DNA from: Parvibaculaceae bacterium
GTDB lineage: Bacteria; Pseudomonadota; Alphaproteobacteria; JAPOUT01
Reading direction: 5' to 3'
DNA length: 64,000 bases
NCBI GenBank assembly: GCA_963457525.1
Contig: OY734805.1
Location: forward strand, 982,984-1,046,983
Positions 46,883 to 57,799 of this stretch are shown here, piece after piece. How positions within the stretch are numbered: the stretch's first letter is position 1; every line of letters starts with the position of its first letter. The notes below the pieces were generated by a model. It made no database searches, was not told the DNA's origin, and saw only the letters and a list, made by a program, of their open reading frames with translations. The translations under genes and the position numbers were made by a program.

Positions 46883-47152
46883 GGGGGGCTGGCTCGGGGG
46901 TTGAAAACTCCGGTTTTGTGATGAATGCGGCCCTCGGGCGCGGGAGAATCGCGGGAGAATCGCGCATGCCCGCAAGCATAAGGCAGGTGGGAGGGTAATG
47001 CTAGACGGCAAATTTGGGAATTTTCGAGGGAAAATCTGCCTTTAGCGGTTGCAAATTAGTGTTTTGGGGGGTAGATTCGCCTTTATCGCAACAGCGGGGC
47101 GGGGAAGGTGTGTGGGGAATTTCCCCTTTAGGACAGGTATCGGAAGTAGCTG

Positions 47153-50100
47153 GTGAGAAAGATGAAACAAGGTGGTGTTTTGCGAAATCGGATGTGTCTG
47201 CGGGCACCAAAGCTGCCGCTCGCCCTTTCGCTTGCGGCAATTTTGCTGGCCGGCTGCGGCGGGAGCGGAGGGGATCGCTTCGTCGGCCCGGGCAGTCCGC
47301 CGCCGCGCGAGCCGACTACCGAGGATCGCGAGGGACGTGCGGAGGAGATTTTGAAGGGGCTGGAGTTTCTCAACCAGACGGACATGCGGCTCGTGTTTGT
47401 GGAAGAGATGGAGGACGAAGACGGGGACGGAAACGGTGACGGGACCGGGAATGGCAACGGAAACGGCAACGGCAACGGCAACGGGGACGAAAACGAGGAA
47501 GAAGTCATGCGGAAGGTGTCGCCTTCCGAGTTGCAACGCATCAACGCGCATCATGCTTACGGATACACCCACAGGGGAGCCGAGTTGCTGGACGAAACCG
47601 GAGACATCAGCGGTTTCGGTGTTTACGTTGGCGTAGGCGGATTGGGACTGGAGCACAACCACGAGAAAATCCTGGGACGCTTATTCCAATCGGCTGTGCC
47701 CTATCCCGAGGATGCTTTTGACGTGTTGCGCATAGACACGGACGCTATGGCGAACCAGGAGTTCAGCGCCCAGGAACTGCTGGCGAGTCTCGATAAGTTT
47801 GGCGACATTGATGCCGTTGAAGAAAGTTTCGAAGCGCGCAAAAAGGCTTTGGTGCGCTCGCTTACCTCCCAATACTACAGTGATGACGAGGCCGCCAATA
47901 GTTATCCGGATCAGGATCGGGTTCATGCGGATTACATCATTCATATCGATGACATCAAGGACCTGACCGATGACGGTTTCGATGACCAGAAGCGATTCAC
48001 ATACCTGCGCAACATTTTGAACTGGGCGGAAGAAAATGATTTCACCGGTCCGGACGACTTCGATCCCGAAGACCCTACCGCGGATCCCCCTATCGCGGGC
48101 GACGGCACAACGGACAAGGACCTGACAGACAACTTCCGTTATATCCAAGCGGTGTGCGCGGACAAGGGAAACTACTCAAGCGGGGCGGTTACGGATTGCC
48201 CCTCCGACAGGCCGCATTTTATCGACTTCGGCGACCGTACGCCGGGGGGTCGTGATTTGCGTTTGATTCCCGATTTTTCGCAACGGCTTCTCGGTTCGCA
48301 GGCCCCCGGACTGATAGCGAACGAGCGCAACATTCACCTTGCCAATCTCTCCTCCCTCCCCGTTGAAGAAGAGAACGAAGACCTTACGGACGACCTTACG
48401 GAACTTCTGGCATTGAGGGCAATAGACGACCTTACGACCCCCGAGGAAAAGATTGAGCGCGCGCGCGAACTGCTCCCCGACCGCATCACGGAAGCAACGC
48501 CGCAGGAGCCGGAAGATATTGACGGCATTCAGAGCATTATCAACGTGCGCATCCGAGAGTTGCTGAAAATACTCGAGGTAGCGCTGGATATTCCGGAAGA
48601 CCCGGAAGCCGATCCATCCAACACGGAGAGCGAGTTAAGCCCGAAGGCTCGCATTGACAGGCGCATTGAGATTTTGTTCGCGAACCTGCGGTTCACGCCT
48701 GCGGAAGGGCCGGTGCACGGCGTCGCCTTTGGAAGCAGGATCGTTCCCCACGTCGCCAACGCCGTGCTCAGAATCGAGTGCGCCGGCGACAATGAAGAAA
48801 CCACCCCTTGCCTGGTGGCGGGCGATATTCGCAAGCCGGACGACCCGCGCACCGATCCGGACATTGACCTCGACAAATTATTCGCCGACTACATCAATGC
48901 CATTCCCGGTCCCACCGATGAGGCGGTGGATGCCGGCACGAGCGGTGACGGTGTCGAGCGGGGGGTGGATATCTTTCTGCTGGACGCGGTGGTCGAAGGC
49001 AACGGCATTGTGGGAGGCGATAGTAGAAAGACTTTCCTCAATACCCATCTTGATGAAACGCTGGCGGCGATTGAAGAATTCCTTGAACGGCGCAACAATC
49101 CGGTCATGGTCGTGCGCTCGGGTTACGGCGGTTTCGAGGGAAAACCCGATCCCGCATCGCCCGATCCCGATAACGTCATACGGGGGCCCCGAACCCTCGC
49201 CGCGCTGCCCTATCGTTACGAGACCTGCACGCAGGAAAATGTTGATGTGGACTGCCGAAACTTCCGCGGGCGAATGCTTACGGCAGCGGCCCTCAACATG
49301 CACAACAACGAGCTTCACGAAAACTCGCCGCGTTGTGGAAATCTGCCGAACGATTGGATCTCCAGAATCCACGGACGTCACTACTGCCTAACCGCTCCCG
49401 GCGACCGTCTCCGCATCAACGGCATGCTTGCATCGGACGACAACGGTGACGAAACCGTCGATCTAACCGCGGGATTCCGCAACGGCAGCAACGAGAAGCA
49501 GCCGGACGGCAGCGACGAGGATCCGGACGAATACCAGGTCGATCTGGGAGCGGCCTCCTTTGTCGCCGGATCCCTGGCGGTGCTGTCCGAGCGGTTTCGC
49601 GGACAACTCTCCGGACGCGAACTTGCATTGCGTCTCGTCAACACAGCCGACCAGGACATCTTCTACGACGACGACACACTGCTTACCGATACACCCCGTC
49701 CCACCGAGGAAGAAATGAATGATCCCGACATCATGGCGGCAGTGGAACAGGAACGCCGCACGGCGATTGAAGAGACTTATGGCGCGGGCTTGATTGATTT
49801 GGAAGCAGCGAGTGAAGTCATCGGCGAAGAGGTTGTGCGCATCCCCTCGTCCTCGGCAAGCAGGAACAAGCCGGCTTCGGCGGTGTCAACATACACGGCC
49901 ACCAAGGTGACAGCGAGCCCGGCATTCGGCGACAGCCTCGCCCTGGCGCTGTACGGCCGCGAAATCGTCACCTTCGATGAATGGGACGCGCCCTTCTGGC
50001 GTCCGTTGTCGTGGCTGGTTTCAACATCAACGAACCGGCGCTCCCTGCTCGAGCGTCGCGAGGGCGCTTCCGCTTCCGGTGCGCGCTTCGTGCCGCTGGA

Positions 50101-51067
50101 GGACGGCGGCCTGCTGGCGTTCACGACCTATCAGGACGACAAATTGTTTTCGGATGATCGCGGCAGCGGGCGCTGGGCGGAGCGTTACCGGGACGATGAT
50201 TTGGCGCAAGAACACAAGATCGAACTCTCCCTGCGCCAGCCCGTTGACGACGGCTTTGAAACCGAACTGCTTTTTGCAACCGGCCAAATCGCCGAACTGC
50301 CGCTTGGCCTGAACGCCGAGCAGGACTTCACGCATCCCTATCTCGGTTTTGCCGGCGAGGGAGTCGGTGCGGGAGGTTCGATGGCATTGGGCGCGGGCCG
50401 CGTCACCGCGCTGGGATTTTCCGGCAGCCAGGACGAAGGCGAGGAAACCTACGCCGCGCACGGCGGCCTGCTGGAATACTCCTTCGCGCCGTCCCCGTCG
50501 CTGAAAGTCGGAATGCAAACCGGTGCGCTTATTGAAGAGGAGCGCGCATTGGGATTGCGCTCGAGCGGCGCCTTCGGAAAAATAGGCACCACTTCCACGG
50601 TGTTCGCCGGTGTTTCCGTGGAAGGCGAGTTGGATGCGAACTGGCGTTTTCGTGCGCAGGCCCTGGGCGGACGGGCAAACCTGTCCGCGCCCTCCGTTGG
50701 CTTGGTGGACGATTTTTCGGGCGTTGCGACCAGTGCGTTCCGGCTGGGCATCGAGGGCTTCGGGCTGTTGCGTGAATCGGATGAATTCTCGCTGTTTGTC
50801 TCCCAGCCCCTGCGCGTCGAGAGCGGTTCGGTGGCGCTTGTCGTTCCTGTCGGGCGCACGCGGGACGGCGCGTTGCTGTCCGAGCGCATTGAAGGCGTCT
50901 CGCTTGCACCGGGCGGACGCGAGATTGAGGTTTCCGCCCGCTACGAGTTTAACCTCACCAGCGACCTTGCCTTGGGATTCGATGCCGGCATTGTCCGCGA
51001 CGGCGGGCATATCCGAGCACAGGCAATCGAGTTTTACGGCTTGGGAGACCTGCACTTCCATTTTTAA
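47153..51067 (+). CDS. Lipoprotein autotransporter, subtilase-like (S8) paralog with degenerate catalytic Ser motif and acidic repeat-rich N-region
   Basis: The lipobox is LLAGC. The region RCGNLPNDWISRIHGRHYCLTAPG...LGAASFVAGSLAV is homologous to the downstream gene, but GTSFASP is replaced. The last ~280 aa are a paralogous β-barrel-like domain ending ...LHFHF. Confidence 0.7.
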   Translation: MRKMKQGGVLRNRMCLRAPKLPLALSLAAILLAGCGGSGGDRFVGPGSPPPREPTTEDREGRAEEILKGLEFLNQTDMRLVFVEEMEDEDGDGNGDGTGNGNGNGNGNGNGDENEEEVMRKVSPSELQRINAHHAYGYTHRGAELLDETGDISGFGVYVGVGGLGLEHNHEKILGRLFQSAVPYPEDAFDVLRIDTDAMANQEFSAQELLASLDKFGDIDAVEESFEARKKALVRSLTSQYYSDDEAANSYPDQDRVHADYIIHIDDIKDLTDDGFDDQKRFTYLRNILNWAEENDFTGPDDFDPEDPTADPPIAGDGTTDKDLTDNFRYIQAVCADKGNYSSGAVTDCPSDRPHFIDFGDRTPGGRDLRLIPDFSQRLLGSQAPGLIANERNIHLANLSSLPVEEENEDLTDDLTELLALRAIDDLTTPEEKIERARELLPDRITEATPQEPEDIDGIQSIINVRIRELLKILEVALDIPEDPEADPSNTESELSPKARIDRRIEILFANLRFTPAEGPVHGVAFGSRIVPHVANAVLRIECAGDNEETTPCLVAGDIRKPDDPRTDPDIDLDKLFADYINAIPGPTDEAVDAGTSGDGVERGVDIFLLDAVVEGNGIVGGDSRKTFLNTHLDETLAAIEEFLERRNNPVMVVRSGYGGFEGKPDPASPDPDNVIRGPRTLAALPYRYETCTQENVDVDCRNFRGRMLTAAALNMHNNELHENSPRCGNLPNDWISRIHGRHYCLTAPGDRLRINGMLASDDNGDETVDLTAGFRNGSNEKQPDGSDEDPDEYQVDLGAASFVAGSLAVLSERFRGQLSGRELALRLVNTADQDIFYDDDTLLTDTPRPTEEEMNDPDIMAAVEQERRTAIEETYGAGLIDLEAASEVIGEEVVRIPSSSASRNKPASAVSTYTATKVTASPAFGDSLALALYGREIVTFDEWDAPFWRPLSWLVSTSTNRRSLLERREGASASGARFVPLEDGGLLAFTTYQDDKLFSDDRGSGRWAERYRDDDLAQEHKIELSLRQPVDDGFETELLFATGQIAELPLGLNAEQDFTHPYLGFAGEGVGAGGSMALGAGRVTALGFSGSQDEGEETYAAHGGLLEYSFAPSPSLKVGMQTGALIEEERALGLRSSGAFGKIGTTSTVFAGVSVEGELDANWRFRAQALGGRANLSAPSVGLVDDFSGVATSAFRLGIEGFGLLRESDEFSLFVSQPLRVESGSVALVVPVGRTRDGALLSERIEGVSLAPGGREIEVSARYEFNLTSDLALGFDAGIVRDGGHIRAQAIEFYGLGDLHFHF
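47450..47488 (+). repeat. Hexanucleotide (AACGGC/AATGGC)n microsatellite encoding (GN)n
   Basis: The tract aatggcaacggaaacggcaacggcaacggcaacgg lies in frame inside the subtilase-like lipoprotein. Confidence 0.6.
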
Positions 51068-51093
51068 TAGAAACGCTATAGGCTTGCCGTATT

Positions 51094-54000
51094 ATGTTCT
51101 TTTATAGCATGGACAAATTAGCGAGACGCTTACACTTGGGAGGGGGCTTTTTCATTGCCTCTCCGGCGAAGGGGCGGAGGACGGTAGAACGCGCGCCAAG
51201 GGCAAAAAAGGCGGTTTTCCTTCCGGTTGTTGCGGGTCTGGCGTTTTGTCTGCTCGTCGGTTGCGGCGGAGGCGGAGGGGACATCACGGGCGCGCATATT
51301 GGCACGGGTTTGCCCGGCGGGGATGAAGACGCCCGCCAGCTGACCGATCTTCCCGCCCGGCCCGGTCCTCCCGAGGACAGGGGGGATGTTGAACTGTCCC
51401 TCATTAATCCCGCTCGTCCGGACGGTGCAGGGAGAGGTTTGCTCAATTGGAGAAATGTGTATCAGATCCAAGCGCCGTTTGCGTGGCTCCGTTGTCCGGA
51501 TGGACAGTATAAGTGCAGTGCAGCCGGCCCAGGGATTGTCGTTGGCATTATGGAAGAGGTGAATCATTTCCACGAGTCTTTTCTTTTTGATAACCCAGAT
51601 GTGACGGGTGAGGTGGTTTACCCACAAACAAAGGTTCACCTAGCCAGCGTTTTCGGATCACCTTATCCGACGAATGCACCCGCGCCAGCCGAAAACCTCA
51701 TTGTTAACTGGGAGGATTTCACCTTTGATAGGGGGGGAGAATATCCCGAATATCCCTGTTTGTTGGAGTACGGCATTCCTTGTCCCGTGCAAGACGGCAC
51801 CCAAAAATATTTTCTGCGGCTTGACGCGAGCCGCGGCGGCGGGCTTCAAGTGTTGCCGGGCAAGAACAACACAATTGAATCCATTGAATGTTACAATGAA
51901 AGAGGACAACCCAATCTGGGCAATCCGCGATGCAGATTTGATTCCCAGGGAAACCTTCGTGTTATTTTTGTTCAAGATGTATGTCCCGTATTTAATGGCA
52001 GTTACGCATGTCCCGAGTTCGGCGCATCCCACGGCACCGGCGTTGCAGGCACCGCCGTGTCTCATTCTATTACGCTAGGAATGCGAGACGAAACCGGTTT
52101 CCGAGGCGTTGCCTATCACGCGACGCTTCTCGTCTATGCGCGACCTTTGCGGATTGCCGGGCTTCCCGCCTCTTTTGCCGACCACGCCAGGTATCTCCTG
52201 GACGCTCCGGCCGCGGCCGATGTTTATAATTTCTCGCATACCTTCGGCACGCAAGTCCAAGGAACCTCCGGTGCTTTCGCGGACCGGGTGCGCTCGCCCC
52301 GGAGCGGTTTCTCCCAACTCGCTGTCGCCTTAAGATGTTTGGGCACATCTCAAACAAGTTCGTGCTCCAATGAAGAGGCCACGCCCTTTATTGCGGCATC
52401 CGGCAACGACGGCGAAGCTTTTCCGCGCTTTCCGGCGGCACTGCCGGTGTTCTTTGATTATTTACGCGGGCAGGTTCTCGCGGTCACGGCGACGGACAAT
52501 ACCGGCGTAATTACCCCCTATGCGAATCGTTGCGGCGCGTTGCCTTCGGACTGGAACAGGAACACTCAGGGACGACATTATTGCCTCGCGGCTCCCGGAG
52601 GCGCTAATGTGGCCCCCATCGGGCAAAATCGGTTTTGGGTGTCGGGCCCCGCAGAAGGGGTGTATTCGCCGGTCTTGGGAACCTCCTTTGCCTCGCCGGT
52701 GGTTGCGGGAGGGTTTGCTGTCGTGAAGGAACATTTTCGCGACGATGACGGTATGGATACCATGAGCGATCGGGAACTTCTCCTTCGTCTGGTAAATACG
52801 GCAAATAACACGAATTGTGCAAGGGAGGCGAACCGTAACGAAGACGGCCCGTGCGACGTTTGGGGTCCCGGCGTCCTGATGGGTGATTACAGCAACGAGG
52901 CGGTCTATGGTGCCGGCCTGCTCGACCTTAATGCAGCGACCGCTCCGGTCGGGATGCAGCGCATGTCCGCCTTCGGCGACGTCAACGGGGGGATCACCTA
53001 TGATTTCGATGTGACATCATTGACGACATCGGCGGCCTTCGGCGACGCGTTCCAACGGGCATTGCACGCCCAGAAGATTGCCGTCTTCGATGAACTTAAT
53101 GCCCCGTTTTGGTATCCGCTCGCTACGCTCATGACAACGACGGCAAGCCGTGAAACCCTTCAAGAGCGCCACGCGCGCCTGTTCGATCGCGACAATGCGC
53201 CGATCGAGACGGCGTTCGGCGGCCGGCTTGCGCTGACATCAACGCACACCGGCTCGTCCGAACAAATCGATATGTCCCTGCGGCAGCCCGTCGATTCGAT
53301 CGCGCAGACGGAACTGCTGCTGACGGCGGGAGATCTCTCCACCGCGCCGCTCGGACTTCACGACGACAAATCCTTCGCACATCCCTATCTCCACTTTGCC
53401 GGCGAGGGCGTCGGCCTAGGCGGTTCGTTGCAACTCGGCGCGGGACGGCTCACGGCGATGGGATTCACAAGCGGCAGCGCGAGCGTTCCCGAGGACATAC
53501 CCGTTGAAGCCCACGGGGGCATGGTAGAATACGCACTCGAACCACTCGAGGGTGTTGCGCTCGGCGTGCAAGCGGGTGCAATGGTGGAGGGCTCGCGTGC
53601 GCTGGGACTGCTTCCGGAAGGCGGCTTCGGCGCGTTGGGCGAATCTTCCACGGCGTTTGCGGGAGTCTCCCTGGACGGCTCGTTGGAGGACGGCTGGCGC
53701 TTTCGCGCAAGCATGCTCTTCGGACGCACGAATCTTGATACGCCCTCCATCGGTTTGCTTGCGACAAGTTCGAGTCTCGAAAGTTCGGCGTTTCGTTTTG
53801 CCTTTGAGGGAAGCGATGTTCTCCTGGATGCGGACCGGGTAGACGTTTTCGTCGCGCAACCCTTGCGCATCGAAGGCGGCGATGCGGATTTCATCGTTCC
53901 TGTTTCGCGCACGCCTTCGGGTTTGGTCACGCGCGAGCGGATCTCCGGCGTTTCGCTTGAGCCGGGCGGCCGGGAGTTGGAATTCGGCACGCGCTACGAG

Positions 54001-54120
54001 ATGCAAGTGCGCGAAGACATTGTTGCAACCGGGGGCGTCGGCATCGTTCACGAGGGCGGGCATTCGAAGTGGCAAGAAACCGAGCTTTACGGCTTGGCAA
54101 ATCTGCGCATCGAGTTTTAA
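51094..54120 (+). CDS. Lipoprotein autotransporter subtilase (S8; NalP/SphB1-like)
   Basis: The lipobox is LLVGCGGGGG. The His motif SHGTGVAGTAV and Ser motif LGTSFASPVVAG are recognisable. The C-terminal β-barrel-like domain ends ...LRIEF. It starts 26 bp after its paralog. Confidence 0.75.
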   Translation: MFFYSMDKLARRLHLGGGFFIASPAKGRRTVERAPRAKKAVFLPVVAGLAFCLLVGCGGGGGDITGAHIGTGLPGGDEDARQLTDLPARPGPPEDRGDVELSLINPARPDGAGRGLLNWRNVYQIQAPFAWLRCPDGQYKCSAAGPGIVVGIMEEVNHFHESFLFDNPDVTGEVVYPQTKVHLASVFGSPYPTNAPAPAENLIVNWEDFTFDRGGEYPEYPCLLEYGIPCPVQDGTQKYFLRLDASRGGGLQVLPGKNNTIESIECYNERGQPNLGNPRCRFDSQGNLRVIFVQDVCPVFNGSYACPEFGASHGTGVAGTAVSHSITLGMRDETGFRGVAYHATLLVYARPLRIAGLPASFADHARYLLDAPAAADVYNFSHTFGTQVQGTSGAFADRVRSPRSGFSQLAVALRCLGTSQTSSCSNEEATPFIAASGNDGEAFPRFPAALPVFFDYLRGQVLAVTATDNTGVITPYANRCGALPSDWNRNTQGRHYCLAAPGGANVAPIGQNRFWVSGPAEGVYSPVLGTSFASPVVAGGFAVVKEHFRDDDGMDTMSDRELLLRLVNTANNTNCAREANRNEDGPCDVWGPGVLMGDYSNEAVYGAGLLDLNAATAPVGMQRMSAFGDVNGGITYDFDVTSLTTSAAFGDAFQRALHAQKIAVFDELNAPFWYPLATLMTTTASRETLQERHARLFDRDNAPIETAFGGRLALTSTHTGSSEQIDMSLRQPVDSIAQTELLLTAGDLSTAPLGLHDDKSFAHPYLHFAGEGVGLGGSLQLGAGRLTAMGFTSGSASVPEDIPVEAHGGMVEYALEPLEGVALGVQAGAMVEGSRALGLLPEGGFGALGESSTAFAGVSLDGSLEDGWRFRASMLFGRTNLDTPSIGLLATSSSLESSAFRFAFEGSDVLLDADRVDVFVAQPLRIEGGDADFIVPVSRTPSGLVTRERISGVSLEPGGRELEFGTRYEMQVREDIVATGGVGIVHEGGHSKWQETELYGLANLRIEF

Positions 54121-54218
54121 GAAAAGACGCCGCAGGCCGGCCGTGCCTGTTTCCATGATACGGGACGTGCAGAGGACGCCCTCCTTTGAGGCGTCCTTTC
54201 TTTTTATCCGAAATTCAT

Positions 54219-54440
54219 CGAAAGAAGCCCCGGCAAAATCTTTTGGATGATGCCGAGGCTTCTCCCCTTCGAGTTGAGTTCTTTGGTTTGCAGACAACCA
54301 CGAAGGTTTATTCGTAACTAATAGATTCTAGTTTAACGGGAAACTCAAGACTTTTTTTCCTTAAATCCGCCTATCCGTTAATTGCCAACGGAAAACGGGG
54401 GGATTTCAAATGTTGATTTTTGCCTTGCCGGACGTCTTGC
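54219..54440 (+). repeat. Copy A of a ~230-bp conserved non-coding element (hairpin block plus downstream blocks)
   Basis: Four to five collinear blocks are shared with 62708-62960, e.g. gaaagaagccccggcaaaatcttttggatgatgccgaggcttctccccttcgagttgagtt and aattgccaacggaaaacgggg. Confidence 0.65.
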
Positions 54441-54787
54441 TAATTCCGGCAGAGTTACTTTTAGGACTCAGCCATGAGCAAAATTACGAAAAAGACAGCC
54501 TGGCGTAATATAACCGGTTTGGCGGTGAGGGGTTTTAGAACCTCCATATACCCAATCTATCCCCCTCGCCGCCTCTTCTCCGATAATTCCTGCCAAGGTC
54601 CGTAATAATCCCGTAAGGCATTTCATCACAGTCATTGCATTGTTCGGGTTGGTGTTTTTGTCCGCGGATTTCGTTCAAGCTCAACGCCGGATTTTGCCGA
54701 ATCGGTTGAATTCTGCTACAAATAACCCGTTCGCGACTGCATTGAAAACGGCAATCGGGACGCTAGAGTGGGAATCGGAGGCACCGC

Positions 54788-56320
54788 ATGGAGTTTCTCG
54801 AATATTCCGGGGCAGTTTTTACTCCTTGGTCCATGCTGATTCTTGTAATCGGCACCGTTGGCGGACTCATACTCGGGGCAACGCCGGGGTTAAGCCCGAC
54901 GATGGCGGTCGCGCTTCTCATACCCTTCACCTTCAAAATGGAACCCGCCCACGGCCTTATTTTGTTGGGCGCGGCCTACACCTCTTCGGTTGCCGGGGGC
55001 GCAATCAGCGCAATTCTCCTTAAAATTCCGGGGGCGCCTGCAAATATCGCGACCGCGCTGGACGGTTTTGCAATGGCTCAAAAAGGCGAAGCCGCAAAAG
55101 CCTTGCAGATGTGTTTTTTGTCTTCGGCCTTTGGTGGCATCATCGGAATATTCGTGCTGATATTCCTGACCCCCATACTGGCCGCCTGGGCGCTGAAGTT
55201 CGGGCCGTCGCATCTGTTCTGGATTGCCATTTTCGGCGTGACGATCATCGCGACGCTTGATTCAAAATCGGTGGTCAAGGGTCTTCTTTCCGGCTGTCTC
55301 GGTCTTTGGATATCGACCATAGGCTTTGATCCGATACAAGGCGTCGAACGTTTTACCTTCACGGAACATTTGGACGGCGGCGTTCATGTCATTGCCGCGT
55401 TAATCGGCCTGTTCGCAATTCCGCAAATCGTGGAGATGCTGGAAACCGGCCGGAAGAAAAAAGACATGACGCTAATGAAAACGTCGCATCACAGCATATG
55501 GGCTTCCGTGCGGGAGGTCTTTGGAAAAGTACGGGCCCTTTTCATCGGGAGCTTCGTCGGTGTTTTCATAGGTTTGATTCCCGGTGCGGGCGGACAAATT
55601 GCAGGCATCGTGTCCTACGACCAGACTCGAAAATTCAGTCCGAATCGCAAGGCGTTCGGCACCGGAGAAAGCGAAGGCGTCGTAGCCGCGGAGTCGGCGA
55701 ACAACGCCATGGTCGGGCCGTCGCTCGTGCCGCTGTTGACGCTGAGCGTGCCCGGAAGCCCCACCGCCGCCGTTCTGCTCGGCGGATTGTTAATCCACGG
55801 AATCTTCCCGGGACCCGACTTGTTCACGGTACACGCGGACGTCACCTGGACTTTCATTAACTCCATGTTGATCGGCCAGATTCTCATGCTGTTGTTCGGT
55901 CTCTATATCGCGCGCCTGGCAGCCAAGATTGTCTTGATACCGCCGCCCTTTCTCGCCGCCGGCATTTTAATACTCGCCGTATTCGGGTCGTATTCGGTGC
56001 AGCATTCCCTTTCCGATGTCTTCGTCATGTTCACCCTCGGACTGGGCGCGTATTTTCTGGAAAAATTCGGGTTTACCGCTACGCCCATGGTGCTCGGGAT
56101 TATTCTGGGACCGATCGCCGAAGCCAATTATATCCAGGGCAGGATTATCGCCCAGGTGGGCGACGGCATGGTGTCGTACTTCTTAACGGGCCCCCTGAAC
56201 ATCACCCTTTATGTTCTTTGCCTTGCCTCGATTGCTTATAGCGTGTTCATGGAAATCCGCTCCGGCAGGCAAACGGCCCTCTCCGGAAAAACGAAGCAAA
56301 GAAAAACGAGGCGAAAATGA
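54788..56320 (+). CDS. tctA: Tripartite tricarboxylate transporter large permease TctA
   Basis: The 510-aa polytopic product carries TctA family motifs GATPGLSPTMAVALLIP...IPGAPANIATALDG. Confidence 0.9.
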   Translation: MEFLEYSGAVFTPWSMLILVIGTVGGLILGATPGLSPTMAVALLIPFTFKMEPAHGLILLGAAYTSSVAGGAISAILLKIPGAPANIATALDGFAMAQKGEAAKALQMCFLSSAFGGIIGIFVLIFLTPILAAWALKFGPSHLFWIAIFGVTIIATLDSKSVVKGLLSGCLGLWISTIGFDPIQGVERFTFTEHLDGGVHVIAALIGLFAIPQIVEMLETGRKKKDMTLMKTSHHSIWASVREVFGKVRALFIGSFVGVFIGLIPGAGGQIAGIVSYDQTRKFSPNRKAFGTGESEGVVAAESANNAMVGPSLVPLLTLSVPGSPTAAVLLGGLLIHGIFPGPDLFTVHADVTWTFINSMLIGQILMLLFGLYIARLAAKIVLIPPPFLAAGILILAVFGSYSVQHSLSDVFVMFTLGLGAYFLEKFGFTATPMVLGIILGPIAEANYIQGRIIAQVGDGMVSYFLTGPLNITLYVLCLASIAYSVFMEIRSGRQTALSGKTKQRKTRRK

Positions 56321-56793
56321 ACGGATTGCAAAACCTTCTAAAGCGGTTGCCGGATGCTGTTCCCGTGGGACTGGTGCTGGTTTTTTCCCTCTGGGTCGCA
56401 TTTGTCAGCTTCAATGTGGAAGACCCGATGCCTTATCTGTTTCCAAGGCTTATCTCCGTCGCCTTGGTGGCTCTCTCGGCGCTGGCATTGGTTCGATGCC
56501 TGCAGGGCAAGGAACAAAGCAACCGAACCGTTACGACCGGGCTGATCAAAAACGTCTCCGCGGGAATTGCGGTGATGGCCGTGTTCGTTTTCTTCGCCGC
56601 CGAGTTTCTCGGGTTTTACGCCGCGTCCGCCTTGGCGTTTCTTGCAATTGTCACATTTTACGACCCTTCCTCCCATGCCGAATTGCGCACATGGGTCAGG
56701 CGGGTCGGCGCAATGATCGGCTTTCTCGCCGTCATGTACGGACTTTTCACCCTTCTGCTGAAAGTCCAAATTCCCCGGGGGCTGCTCATATGA
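56317..56793 (+). CDS. tctB: Tripartite tricarboxylate transporter small permease TctB
   Basis: The 158-aa product has 4 TM helices. It overlaps tctA by 4 bp. Confidence 0.7.
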   Translation: MNGLQNLLKRLPDAVPVGLVLVFSLWVAFVSFNVEDPMPYLFPRLISVALVALSALALVRCLQGKEQSNRTVTTGLIKNVSAGIAVMAVFVFFAAEFLGFYAASALAFLAIVTFYDPSSHAELRTWVRRVGAMIGFLAVMYGLFTLLLKVQIPRGLLI

Positions 56794-56839
56794 GAGCGGT
56801 CTCAATTTCCAACAACATCCCTAAAAGGAGGACATTACA

Positions 56840-57799
56840 ATGAAACGTATACTTACATTAATAGTCGCGATGCTCGCTGTTTCATACGGCGGCGCTGCTC
56901 TTGCCCAGGATTATCCCGACCGTCCCATCAGCGTCATGGTTTCATACGGCGCGGGCGGCGCGACGGATTTTCAAGCGCGAATCGTAACAATGGTTGCCGG
57001 CAACGAGGAATACCTCGGCCAGCCGATTGTCATTTTGAACAGGCCGGGCGCCGGCGGCAGGGTCGGGTGGAATCATTTCGCCTCGAAAGCCAAAGCGGAC
57101 GGTTATGAAATGGCCGCCTACAACGTGCCGCACTTTATCGCCCAGTCGATAAAATTTGACACCAAGTACAACATCGACAATCTCGAACCGATTGCCAATT
57201 GGGGCGCGGACCCCGCCGTGTTTGTCGTGGGCAAGGACAGCCCGTTTGACACGATGGCCGATGTTGTGGAGTACGCCAAAGCCAATCCCGAAAAGATCAC
57301 GGTCTCGGGCGCGGGACTCTTTGTCGGCCATCACATCGCGTTTCTTCAAATTCAAAAGGAAACAGGGGTGAAGATGACTTACGTGCCGTCCAAAGGCGGC
57401 GGAGCGGCCGCCCTTAAATCCGTCATAGGCGGACAAGTCATGGCGGGCATCAACAATCTGTCCGACGCATTCCGCAGCCGCGACAATTTGAAGATTCTCG
57501 GCGTTGCCGACAACCGGCGGGACAAGGAATTCCTGCCCGACGTTCCGACCTTCAAGGAGCAAGGGTTCAACGTGGATGATTCTTCGGTGAATTACCGCGG
57601 CATCATGGTTCGCAAGGGCACGCCGCAGGAGGTTATCGACAAATTGGCGGCGCAAGTTCCCAAGATGTTTGAGAACGACCGCGTCAAAAAGCAAATGGCG
57701 AAAGCCGGATCTCCGCTTCGTGTTTTAAACCGCGATCAAGTGAAAGCGATGTGGGAAGAGCGTCAGGTTTTTCTCACCGAATTGCTGAAAGGGTTGTAA
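56840..57799 (+). CDS. tctC: TctC/Bug-family periplasmic substrate-binding protein
   Basis: The signal peptide is followed by YPDRPISVMVSYGAGGATD, the Bug-family N-motif. Confidence 0.85.
   Translation: MKRILTLIVAMLAVSYGGAALAQDYPDRPISVMVSYGAGGATDFQARIVTMVAGNEEYLGQPIVILNRPGAGGRVGWNHFASKAKADGYEMAAYNVPHFIAQSIKFDTKYNIDNLEPIANWGADPAVFVVGKDSPFDTMADVVEYAKANPEKITVSGAGLFVGHHIAFLQIQKETGVKMTYVPSKGGGAAALKSVIGGQVMAGINNLSDAFRSRDNLKILGVADNRRDKEFLPDVPTFKEQGFNVDDSSVNYRGIMVRKGTPQEVIDKLAAQVPKMFENDRVKKQMAKAGSPLRVLNRDQVKAMWEERQVFLTELLKGL

Follow-up and report, generated by a model that had tools for sequence, protein, structure and literature searches.

A tandem pair of predicted outer-membrane lipoprotein subtilases, a conserved pseudo-subtilase and a probable Glu-His-Ser protease, sharing a barrel family without a curated model

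The window analysed here, a 64-kb stretch of contig OY734805.1 from a marine Hyphomicrobiales bacterium, carries on its forward strand two adjacent genes, A and B, each of which encodes a predicted lipoprotein that combines a subtilase (peptidase family S8) domain with a C-terminal outer-membrane barrel. Proteins that join a lipidated subtilase to such a barrel are already known, and A and B are a variant of this kind. NalP of Neisseria meningitidis and SphB1 of Bordetella pertussis are lipidated subtilisin-like type Va autotransporters (PMC9977779), and few autotransporters are as poorly understood as those with a subtilase (PMC9289746). An initial annotation, made from the letters alone, had assigned A and B to this group; the features of the two genes that bear on their common origin are as follows.

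47153-51067, forward strand: gene A, lipoprotein pseudo-subtilase with a predicted C-terminal outer-membrane barrel; 1304 amino acids (aa) counted from GTG 47153
47243-47257, forward strand: lipobox LLAGC of A, residues 31-35, followed by GGSGG; read in the sequence
51068-51093, forward strand: spacer between A and B, 26 nucleotides (nt); read from the sequence
51094-54120, forward strand: gene B, lipoprotein subtilase with a putative Glu-His-Ser triad and a predicted C-terminal outer-membrane barrel; 1008 aa
51250-51264, forward strand: lipobox LLVGC of B, residues 53-57, followed by GGGGG; read in the sequence, C57 at least 90% conserved in the family

Both open reading frames and their 26-bp spacing are confirmed as first annotated, and for gene A an ATG at 47162, preceded by a Shine-Dalgarno-like GGTGAG box, is a likelier start than the GTG at 47153. 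In a scan made for the A-B spacer, promoter-like and terminator-like matches were not commoner than in shuffled sequence; A and B are likely co-transcribed. The two lipoboxes with their poly-Gly runs had been correctly recognised, and a basic n-region and a hydrophobic stretch lie ahead of each, as expected of a predicted lipoprotein signal peptide; in A, L31-C35 is invariant across five A-type sequences. BLASTP aligns A679-1304 with B444-1008 at 38% identity (644-aa alignment, E 2e-112), and the final 395 aa of the two proteins are 46% identical and end in HFHF in A and RIEF in B, which bears out the claim of homologous C-terminal beta-domains closing on a Phe. By these comparisons A and B are tandem paralogues with a shared plan, apparently from an ancient duplication, and the proposed tandem pair of subtilase/outer-membrane-barrel proteins holds; no third copy of an A/B-type gene is found within the 64-kb window. 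The N-terminus of B (51094-51250) is unusually long, with ~40 aa ahead of the hydrophobic core of the signal peptide. A start codon nearer the hydrophobic signal region was sought and none was found, and the extension, FFIxSPxKxRRT, is also present in a homologue (P0002).

The S8 domain of A is expanded by insertions and degenerate at each catalytic position.

47525-49813, forward strand: degenerate, insertion-expanded S8 domain of A, residues ~125-887
47639-47641, forward strand: G163 of A at the catalytic Asp position (Asp to Gly), VGVGGLG against canonical VGviDsG; from the profile and column alignment, Gly in all A-clade proteins
48290-48292, forward strand: L380 of A at the catalytic His position (His to Leu), LLGSQAPGLIA against sHGTaVAGiiA; from hmmalign to the family profile
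49124-49126, forward strand: Y658 of A at the oxyanion-hole Asn position (Asn to Tyr), RSGYGG against AAGNxG; from the alignments
49544-49546, forward strand: L798 of A at the catalytic Ser position in an ungapped alignment with the following helix, DLGAASFVAG against GTSfAAPlVsG

The initial annotation had reported that the Ser motif of A is replaced, and it is, with orthologues reading DLGAAAFVAG and DLYAAAYLAG at this site. An alternative path through the family hidden Markov model (HMM) puts the catalytic Ser position at D788; a conserved Ser is present at neither. The loss is wider than had been claimed: in the alignment of the catalytic residues that had been suggested as a check, A keeps none of the four, the His position being Leu or Asp in the other A-clade proteins. 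The motif PVHGVAFG at A residue 522 was considered as a retained catalytic His and ruled out, since the family HMM equates it with the 'hGVAxxA' strand, which in all relatives comes after the His helix. As judged from its sequence, A is catalytically dead, with Asp, His, Asn and Ser all replaced. A gives no Pfam match, and its model keeps the S8 fold. The first 700 aa of A had been described as an acquired acidic N-region. Acidic they are (20% Asp+Glu; mature A has an isoelectric point of 4.4 and a net charge of ~-121), but the region is not an acquisition; it is the stretched N-terminal two thirds of the S8 domain, in which what is left of the Asp strand, His helix and Asn loop can still be recognised, pushed apart by insertions. 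These amount to ~450 aa altogether, including ~210 aa that part the Asp strand from the His helix and ~120 aa behind the latter, and are acidic and mostly predicted to be helical.

The degenerate state of A is shared by its relatives. Full-length A orthologues at 62% and 55% identity have all four catalytic positions substituted alike, and the distant A-type proteins P0056, P0057, P0059, P0061 and P0062 (~45% identity) carry catalytic substitutions as in A. The order ubiB-ubiE, A, B-type gene is kept at every syntenic locus, namely in the window and in the related loci L001, L002, L003 and L007, and thereby also in genomes whose A orthologues share no more than 55-62% identity. In L003 (6549-14434), from a related metagenome-assembled genome, the A-type gene is followed by three tandem B-type genes (one in the window), and in L007, from a Tara metagenome, the gene 3' of the A-type gene has GIMEEVN, HGTGVAS and SGTSFAAP. 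A contig scan with the A alignment, whose search patterns came from the N-terminus, gave three loci only. We estimated the ratio of non-synonymous to synonymous substitution rates (dN/dS) between the window and L001, whose genomes are 97.8% identical at the nucleotide level; outside a recombined patch described below, dN/dS of A is 0.06-0.11, and that of ubiB, for comparison, is 0.08. On these values A is under purifying selection. Because the replacements are clade-wide, dN/dS is 0.06-0.11 and synteny is conserved, A appears to be a maintained pseudoprotease, its catalytic residues gone and selection upheld.

A decaying, functionless relic of the tandem duplication would likewise have lost its catalytic residues and its Pfam match, and the low-complexity acidic insertions and the unstable repeat of A would suit such a protein. 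The 1304-codon reading frame is nevertheless unbroken and constrained outside the patch, the model retains the S8 fold, orthologues at 45-62% identity keep the substitutions, the lipobox, the fold and the barrel, and the place upstream of B-type genes is conserved. Decay of A is therefore strongly disfavoured, and we give it hardly any probability. Elsewhere in the barrel-linked S8 family, the proteins P0112, P0122, P0139, P0157 and P0189 show independent catalytic losses (DYNA, DHDA, SWDS, DSDQ and GNDS), P0157 having N-terminal ankyrin repeats; the family seems to have produced pseudo-subtilases on repeated occasions.

Protein B was aligned to subtilisin BPN' and to a family HMM built from 50 canonical relatives, and alignment columns were counted in a set of 56 sequences.

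51553-51555, forward strand: E154 of B at the catalytic Asp position, motif GIMEEVN; equivalent to D32 of subtilisin BPN' and to the Asp of the family HMM
52030-52032, forward strand: H313 of B, catalytic His, SHGTGVAG; from the BPN' and HMM alignments
52405-52407, forward strand: N438 of B, oxyanion-hole Asn, SGNDG; from the BPN' and HMM alignments
52684-52686, forward strand: S531 of B, catalytic Ser, GTSFASP; from the BPN' and HMM alignments

B has the S8 subtilisin alpha/beta fold of the PF00082 family. The statement that the downstream copy retains its catalytic motifs stands for HGTGVAG and GTSFASP; at the Asp position it has Glu154 and is not fully canonical. Met153 was tried as the counterpart of Asp32 and discarded, since column by column Asp32 corresponds to Glu154. 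The acid column holds Glu in 46 of the 56 sequences, Asp in 6 and Gly in 4 (the A-type sequences), and the next residue, Glu155, is free to vary, with Ala or Gly in its place. The set D-H-N-S occurs in 107 of 205 family proteins and E-H-N-S in 50; two of the latter lie outside the B clade, within which Glu at the acid position is clade-wide. Because this Glu is conserved and Asp occasional, B probably works with a Glu-His-Ser triad, and the alignments make it most likely that B is an active protease. The canonical Asp-His-Ser triad with its oxyanion Asn is thus present in neither protein, B being a variant member of S8 and A a pseudo-member. Of the active and pseudo-protease surface pair first suggested, the catalytically dead upstream copy and the His, Asn and Ser of the downstream copy are borne out, whereas the downstream Asp is replaced by Glu. 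Two or three B-type copies also occur on several other contigs, which suggests that tandem duplication makes the number of active copies rise and fall.

Beyond the protease domain, A and B share a junction and a barrel that set them apart from classical autotransporters.

50111-51064, forward strand: C-terminal beta-barrel of A, residues ~987-1304, 16 predicted strands, ending in HFHF
52942-53223, forward strand: conserved junction of B, residues 617-710, from protease to barrel; motif AFGDxxxRAL...FDELxAPFW, kept across the barrel-linked family
53224-54117, forward strand: C-terminal beta-barrel of B, residues 711-1008, 16 predicted strands, ending in RIEF

AlphaFold (AF2) models predict 16 long strands in each barrel (711-1006 in B, ~987-1302 in A), with per-residue model confidence (pLDDT) mostly 85-95. 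Pfam and NCBIfam scans of the full proteins gave no barrel match, with PF03797 and TIGR01414 absent from A and B, and the isolated C-terminal 395 aa of A and of B gave no Pfam match at E 10. The best structural matches of the barrel are 16-strand porins (Omp32, OprP, chitoporin and PorB), with 5-12% identity, that is, no sequence relationship; these porins, unlike A and B, are stand-alone trimeric channels with no enzyme fused to them. The autotransporters AaaA, EstA and EspP are weak Foldseek matches with target-normalised TM-scores below those of the porins. Against sequences of the PDB, a profile of the C-terminal alignment returned one chance match, to threonine synthase (E 0.057), and phmmer with B returned none.

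The barrel nonetheless belongs to a large family. A two-sequence profile of the C-terminal domain found 1736 cluster representatives (50% identity) among 1.84 billion proteins, 761 of them at E <= 1e-10; the domain almost invariably forms the C-terminal part of proteins that are 700-1000 aa long. When 50 of these proteins were scanned, 48 contained PF00082 and none contained PF03797 or TIGR01414; an OprB match in one of the 50 was absent on a rescan of the seven longest members and was dropped. A few relatives add N-terminal Ank, fn3, He_PIG or Calx-beta domains. A profile search of a 90%-identity database gave more than 1100 proteins in which PF00082 is the sole precomputed Pfam domain, and members, where named at all, are called only 'S8 family serine peptidase'. 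They come from SAR86, Nitrospira, Candidatus Spongiihabitans (sponge symbionts), Parvularculales and Fodinicurvata, and the SNRCG...C(L)AAPG motif of A and B is common to the wider family. The barrel is a large family almost exclusive to S8 peptidases and lies outside the classical autotransporter models; a literature search on 16-strand subtilase autotransporters gave general reviews only.

In the B model, residues 617-710 form a mixture of short strands and helices of 4-6 residues (DSSP). No beta-helix or long helix precedes strand 1 in the modelled ~100-residue junction, although a threaded linker is compatible with it, and no POTRA or other Pfam match appears in the junction at E up to 10. 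The stalk or autochaperone and the lumenal helix of type Va proteins are thus missing from the models, as is the 12-strand translocator described by PF03797 and TIGR01414. A and B resemble NalP and SphB1 in their lipobox and Gly-rich tether, their autotransporter-associated S8 subtype, the aromatic last residue of their C-terminal barrel and their likely role in processing surface proteins (PMC9977779, PMC9289746). They differ in a barrel that PF03797 and TIGR01414 do not detect, with 16 predicted strands instead of 12, in models that lack a beta-helix stalk or long lumenal helix, in the Glu that takes the place of the triad Asp in B, and in having a pseudo-enzyme partner, which is described for neither NalP nor SphB1. 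Ssp of Serratia marcescens (PDB 8e7f) is the best structural match to the protease domain; unlike A and B, it is no lipoprotein, has the canonical Asp-His-Ser triad and carries a 248-residue beta-helix under the protease, followed by a classical translocator.

It is conceivable that A and B are, after all, classical type Va proteins of the NalP/SphB1 subgroup, with 12 strands and a lumenal alpha-helix, and that they have diverged too far for Pfam or TIGRFAM while AlphaFold mis-models the barrel. The lipobox followed by a Gly run is shared with NalP and SphB1 (PMC9977779), the protease domain finds its best structural match in an autotransporter, the SNRCG...C(L)AAPG motif extends through the wider family, the C-terminus has alternating hydrophobic residues and a final Phe, and AaaA, EstA and EspP barrels are among the weak Foldseek matches. 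Such divergence would have to hide PF03797 from a search of the isolated C-terminal domains at a cutoff as loose as E 10 and in 50 relatives, together with TIGR01414, it would have to mislead two independent models into 16 long strands each (pLDDT ~85-95 in the barrel), and only ~100 residues, with no beta-helix or long helix, separate S8 from barrel, where the beta-helix of Ssp alone takes 248. With porins as the best match in addition, we regard membership of the type Va family, as first proposed, as improbable.

The strand number, so far as the models predict it, is that of type Vd and other Omp85-type translocators, and the type Vd autotransporters PlpD and FplA likewise unite an N-terminal enzyme passenger and a C-terminal 16-strand barrel in one polypeptide (PMC9289746). 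No POTRA, Bac_surface_Ag or [VI]RG[FY] loop-6 motif was found in A or B, and the structural scores of CdiB and TamA are no better than those of porins. Because POTRA, Bac_surface_Ag and the VRGF/Y motif are lacking, a type Vd/Omp85 assignment fails.

Two stretches of gene A vary between close relatives.

47413-47499, forward strand: imperfect hexanucleotide/dodecanucleotide repeat, in frame, encoding G[DNT] dipeptides; Tandem Repeats Finder (TRF) periods 6 and 12, 76-78% matches
47640-48230, forward strand: mosaic hypervariable patch of A, ~aa 163-360; 12-26% nucleotide divergence from L001 and L002, background ~0.5-1%

An (AACGGC)n tract had been placed at 47450-47488 and put forward as a candidate for slipped-strand length variation. 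The in-frame NG repeat is there, close to the lipid anchor, its (NG)6 core at 47450-47485 reading AAT GGC AAC GGA (AAC GGC)x3 AAC GGG, but it is imperfect, with three perfect AACGGC units only. The comparison of copy number across genomes that had been called for gave three lengths in three near-identical genomes: 26 aa in the window, 30 in L001 and 36 in L002, all in frame and differing by multiples of 3 nt. L001 and L002 are nearly identical over ~12 kb apart from the tract. The candidate thus shows the difference in copy number between close strains that is expected of a contingency locus, and the tract is the fastest-changing site of the locus by this comparison, with the caveat that the three are metagenome assemblies. 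The tract is missing in the orthologues P0054 and P0055, and the whole acidic segment is missing in the orthologues at 55-62% identity.

NalP is switched on and off by a frameshifting homopolymer tract, and A had been likened to it. A simple-sequence repeat in the 5' coding region whose copy number differs among near-identical genomes is what an on/off phase-variation switch of A would look like. The unit is 6 nt (or 12 nt), however, and since every allele, of 26, 30 or 36 aa, stays in frame, slippage alters length only and cannot shift the frame; A lacks a frameshifting tract of the NalP type, the gene cannot be switched off, the perfect units number three only, and orthologues without the tract indicate that it is no part of a conserved design. 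A switch at this repeat is accordingly very improbable. More plausibly, the repeat would tune the tether length or the antigenicity of A and not its expression.

In the patch (~600 nt), dS is 0.44 and dN 0.13, against a dS of 0.02-0.04 elsewhere, which points to import by recombination from a divergent allele. In B, dN/dS reaches 0.82 in residues 61-400, the first half of the protease domain, from 26.5 non-synonymous and 10.5 synonymous substitutions, and is 0.05 in the barrel; the barrels of both proteins hardly change. A fast passenger on a frozen barrel is what one would expect of an exposed domain on a membrane anchor.

Around the pair, ubiE and ubiB lie upstream of A on the opposite strand, and B is followed by ~670 bp without a convincing gene (54121-54787) and then by tctA, tctB and tctC.

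54173-54207, forward strand: terminator-like hairpin 3' of B, consisting of AGGACGCC, a 9-nt loop, GGCGTCCT and then TTCTTTTT; read in the sequence

The hairpin was missed by the terminator scanner, whose loop limit is 8 nt. By eye, the gene-free stretch is richer in AT. In L001 (GCA_026708505.1), a 2.3-kb AbiEi/AbiEii (abortive-infection/toxin-antitoxin) cassette lies directly 3' of B (L001:12116-14427); at the site of this cassette the window has ~200 bp only (54373-54574), so that there is an insertion/deletion polymorphism beside the locus, and the stretch 54121-54787 may be a scar of such a cassette. The tripartite tricarboxylate transporter occupies 54788-57799, with Pfam E-values of 3e-137, 5e-16 and 5e-38 for tctA, tctB and tctC and a 4-nt overlap of tctA and tctB. 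Antisense open reading frames of 206-344 aa inside A and B (50027-51061, 53416-54297 and 47042-47662, all on the reverse strand) lack support from homologues and are most simply read as by-products of the G+C-rich coding strand.

Taken together, we think it probable that A and B form a pair of outer-membrane lipoproteins with a distinct barrel, one dead and the other likely active with a Glu-His-Ser triad, and that both are displayed at the cell surface. Each would follow one plan: a signal peptide with a lipobox, a Gly-rich tether, an S8 domain of the Ssp/NalP type, a junction of ~100 aa and a barrel of ~300 aa with 16 predicted strands and a terminal Phe. The barrel would be inserted by the barrel assembly machinery (BAM) and would show the protease domain at the cell surface in the manner of an autotransporter, with the N-terminal lipid as an additional point of attachment, as it is in NalP and SphB1. 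B may process surface, host or environmental proteins, and A may be its non-catalytic partner, acting as a scaffold that binds substrate or ligand, as a regulator or as a decoy. For the latter there is a precedent in Clostridioides difficile, where CspB is an active subtilase controlled by the pseudoproteases CspA and CspC (PMC7200643), although the Csp proteins differ in being soluble spore proteins of a Gram-positive organism with neither lipid anchor nor barrel. Exposure at the surface is hinted at by the extracellular-type accessory domains of relatives and by the fast passenger on its frozen barrel; like the cooperation of A and B, it is something we infer by analogy.

The main rival is that both proteins face the periplasm and nothing is translocated, with the lipid in the inner leaflet of the outer membrane and the barrel a mere anchor or a porin, as in BcsC, PgaA and OmpM, which have a periplasmic N-terminal domain and a C-terminal barrel. 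The barrel is indeed closer to porins and to exopolysaccharide export barrels (PgaA, BcsC and PelB) than to translocators, an even number of strands puts its N-terminus in the periplasm by default, and neither POTRA nor lumenal helix nor autochaperone was detected. This arrangement sits less easily with relatives that carry fn3, Ig-like He_PIG, Calx-beta and ankyrin domains N-terminal to the protease, as is typical of extracellular proteins, with a fast, mosaic passenger that has a variable repeat while the barrel is frozen, which is the pattern of exposed antigens, with a barrel family found almost only on S8 domains, which suggests a dedicated export role, and with the Cys-Gly(n) tether, which is typical of surface lipoproteins. 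We consider it unlikely, though a serious contender.

Several points weigh against surface display of an active and a dead partner. A periplasm-facing protease on a porin-like anchor also fits the architecture; the Glu in place of Asp might lower or abolish the activity of B, and a literature search for a Glu-His-Ser enzyme of the S8 family gave no description of one; the distant A-type protein P0057 has no B-type neighbour, which means that A does not strictly need an adjacent B; the tract lengths differ between metagenome assemblies, in which repeat collapse or expansion is a known artefact; and the dN/dS values come from few substitutions.

Building on the displayed pair, we tentatively raise a bolder possibility, to which we lend rather less credence. 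The junction and the 16-strand barrel might constitute an unrecognised display or secretion module dedicated to S8 peptidases, unlike types Va-Vf in having no 12-strand translocator, POTRA or Omp85 signature, and widespread in marine and symbiotic diderms. A and B might then be a fixed enzyme/pseudo-enzyme surface pair in which the dead copy, hypervariable and highly acidic, guides the Glu-His-Ser protease or shields it.

To our knowledge, a barrel family almost exclusive to S8 peptidases, with 16 predicted strands and no curated model, has not been described, and the same holds for a conserved pseudo-subtilase that lacks all four catalytic residues and for a clade-wide Glu-His-Ser triad. In A and B, a lipid anchor and a protease subtype like those of NalP and SphB1 are joined to a different barrel, one that is without a curated model and is carried by more than 1000 S8 peptidases. 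If this barrel exports its protease, it would be a new architecture for type V-like secretion; if it does not, the family would be a new class of outer-membrane-tethered periplasmic protease. A conserved dead partner such as A would provide a Gram-negative parallel to the Csp pseudoproteases, and the putative Glu-His-Ser triad, found throughout the clade, offers a testable departure from the Asp-His-Ser triad that defines S8. The locus would also offer a clean natural case of diversification, by an in-frame repeat and a recombined patch, that is confined to the exposed part of a protein.

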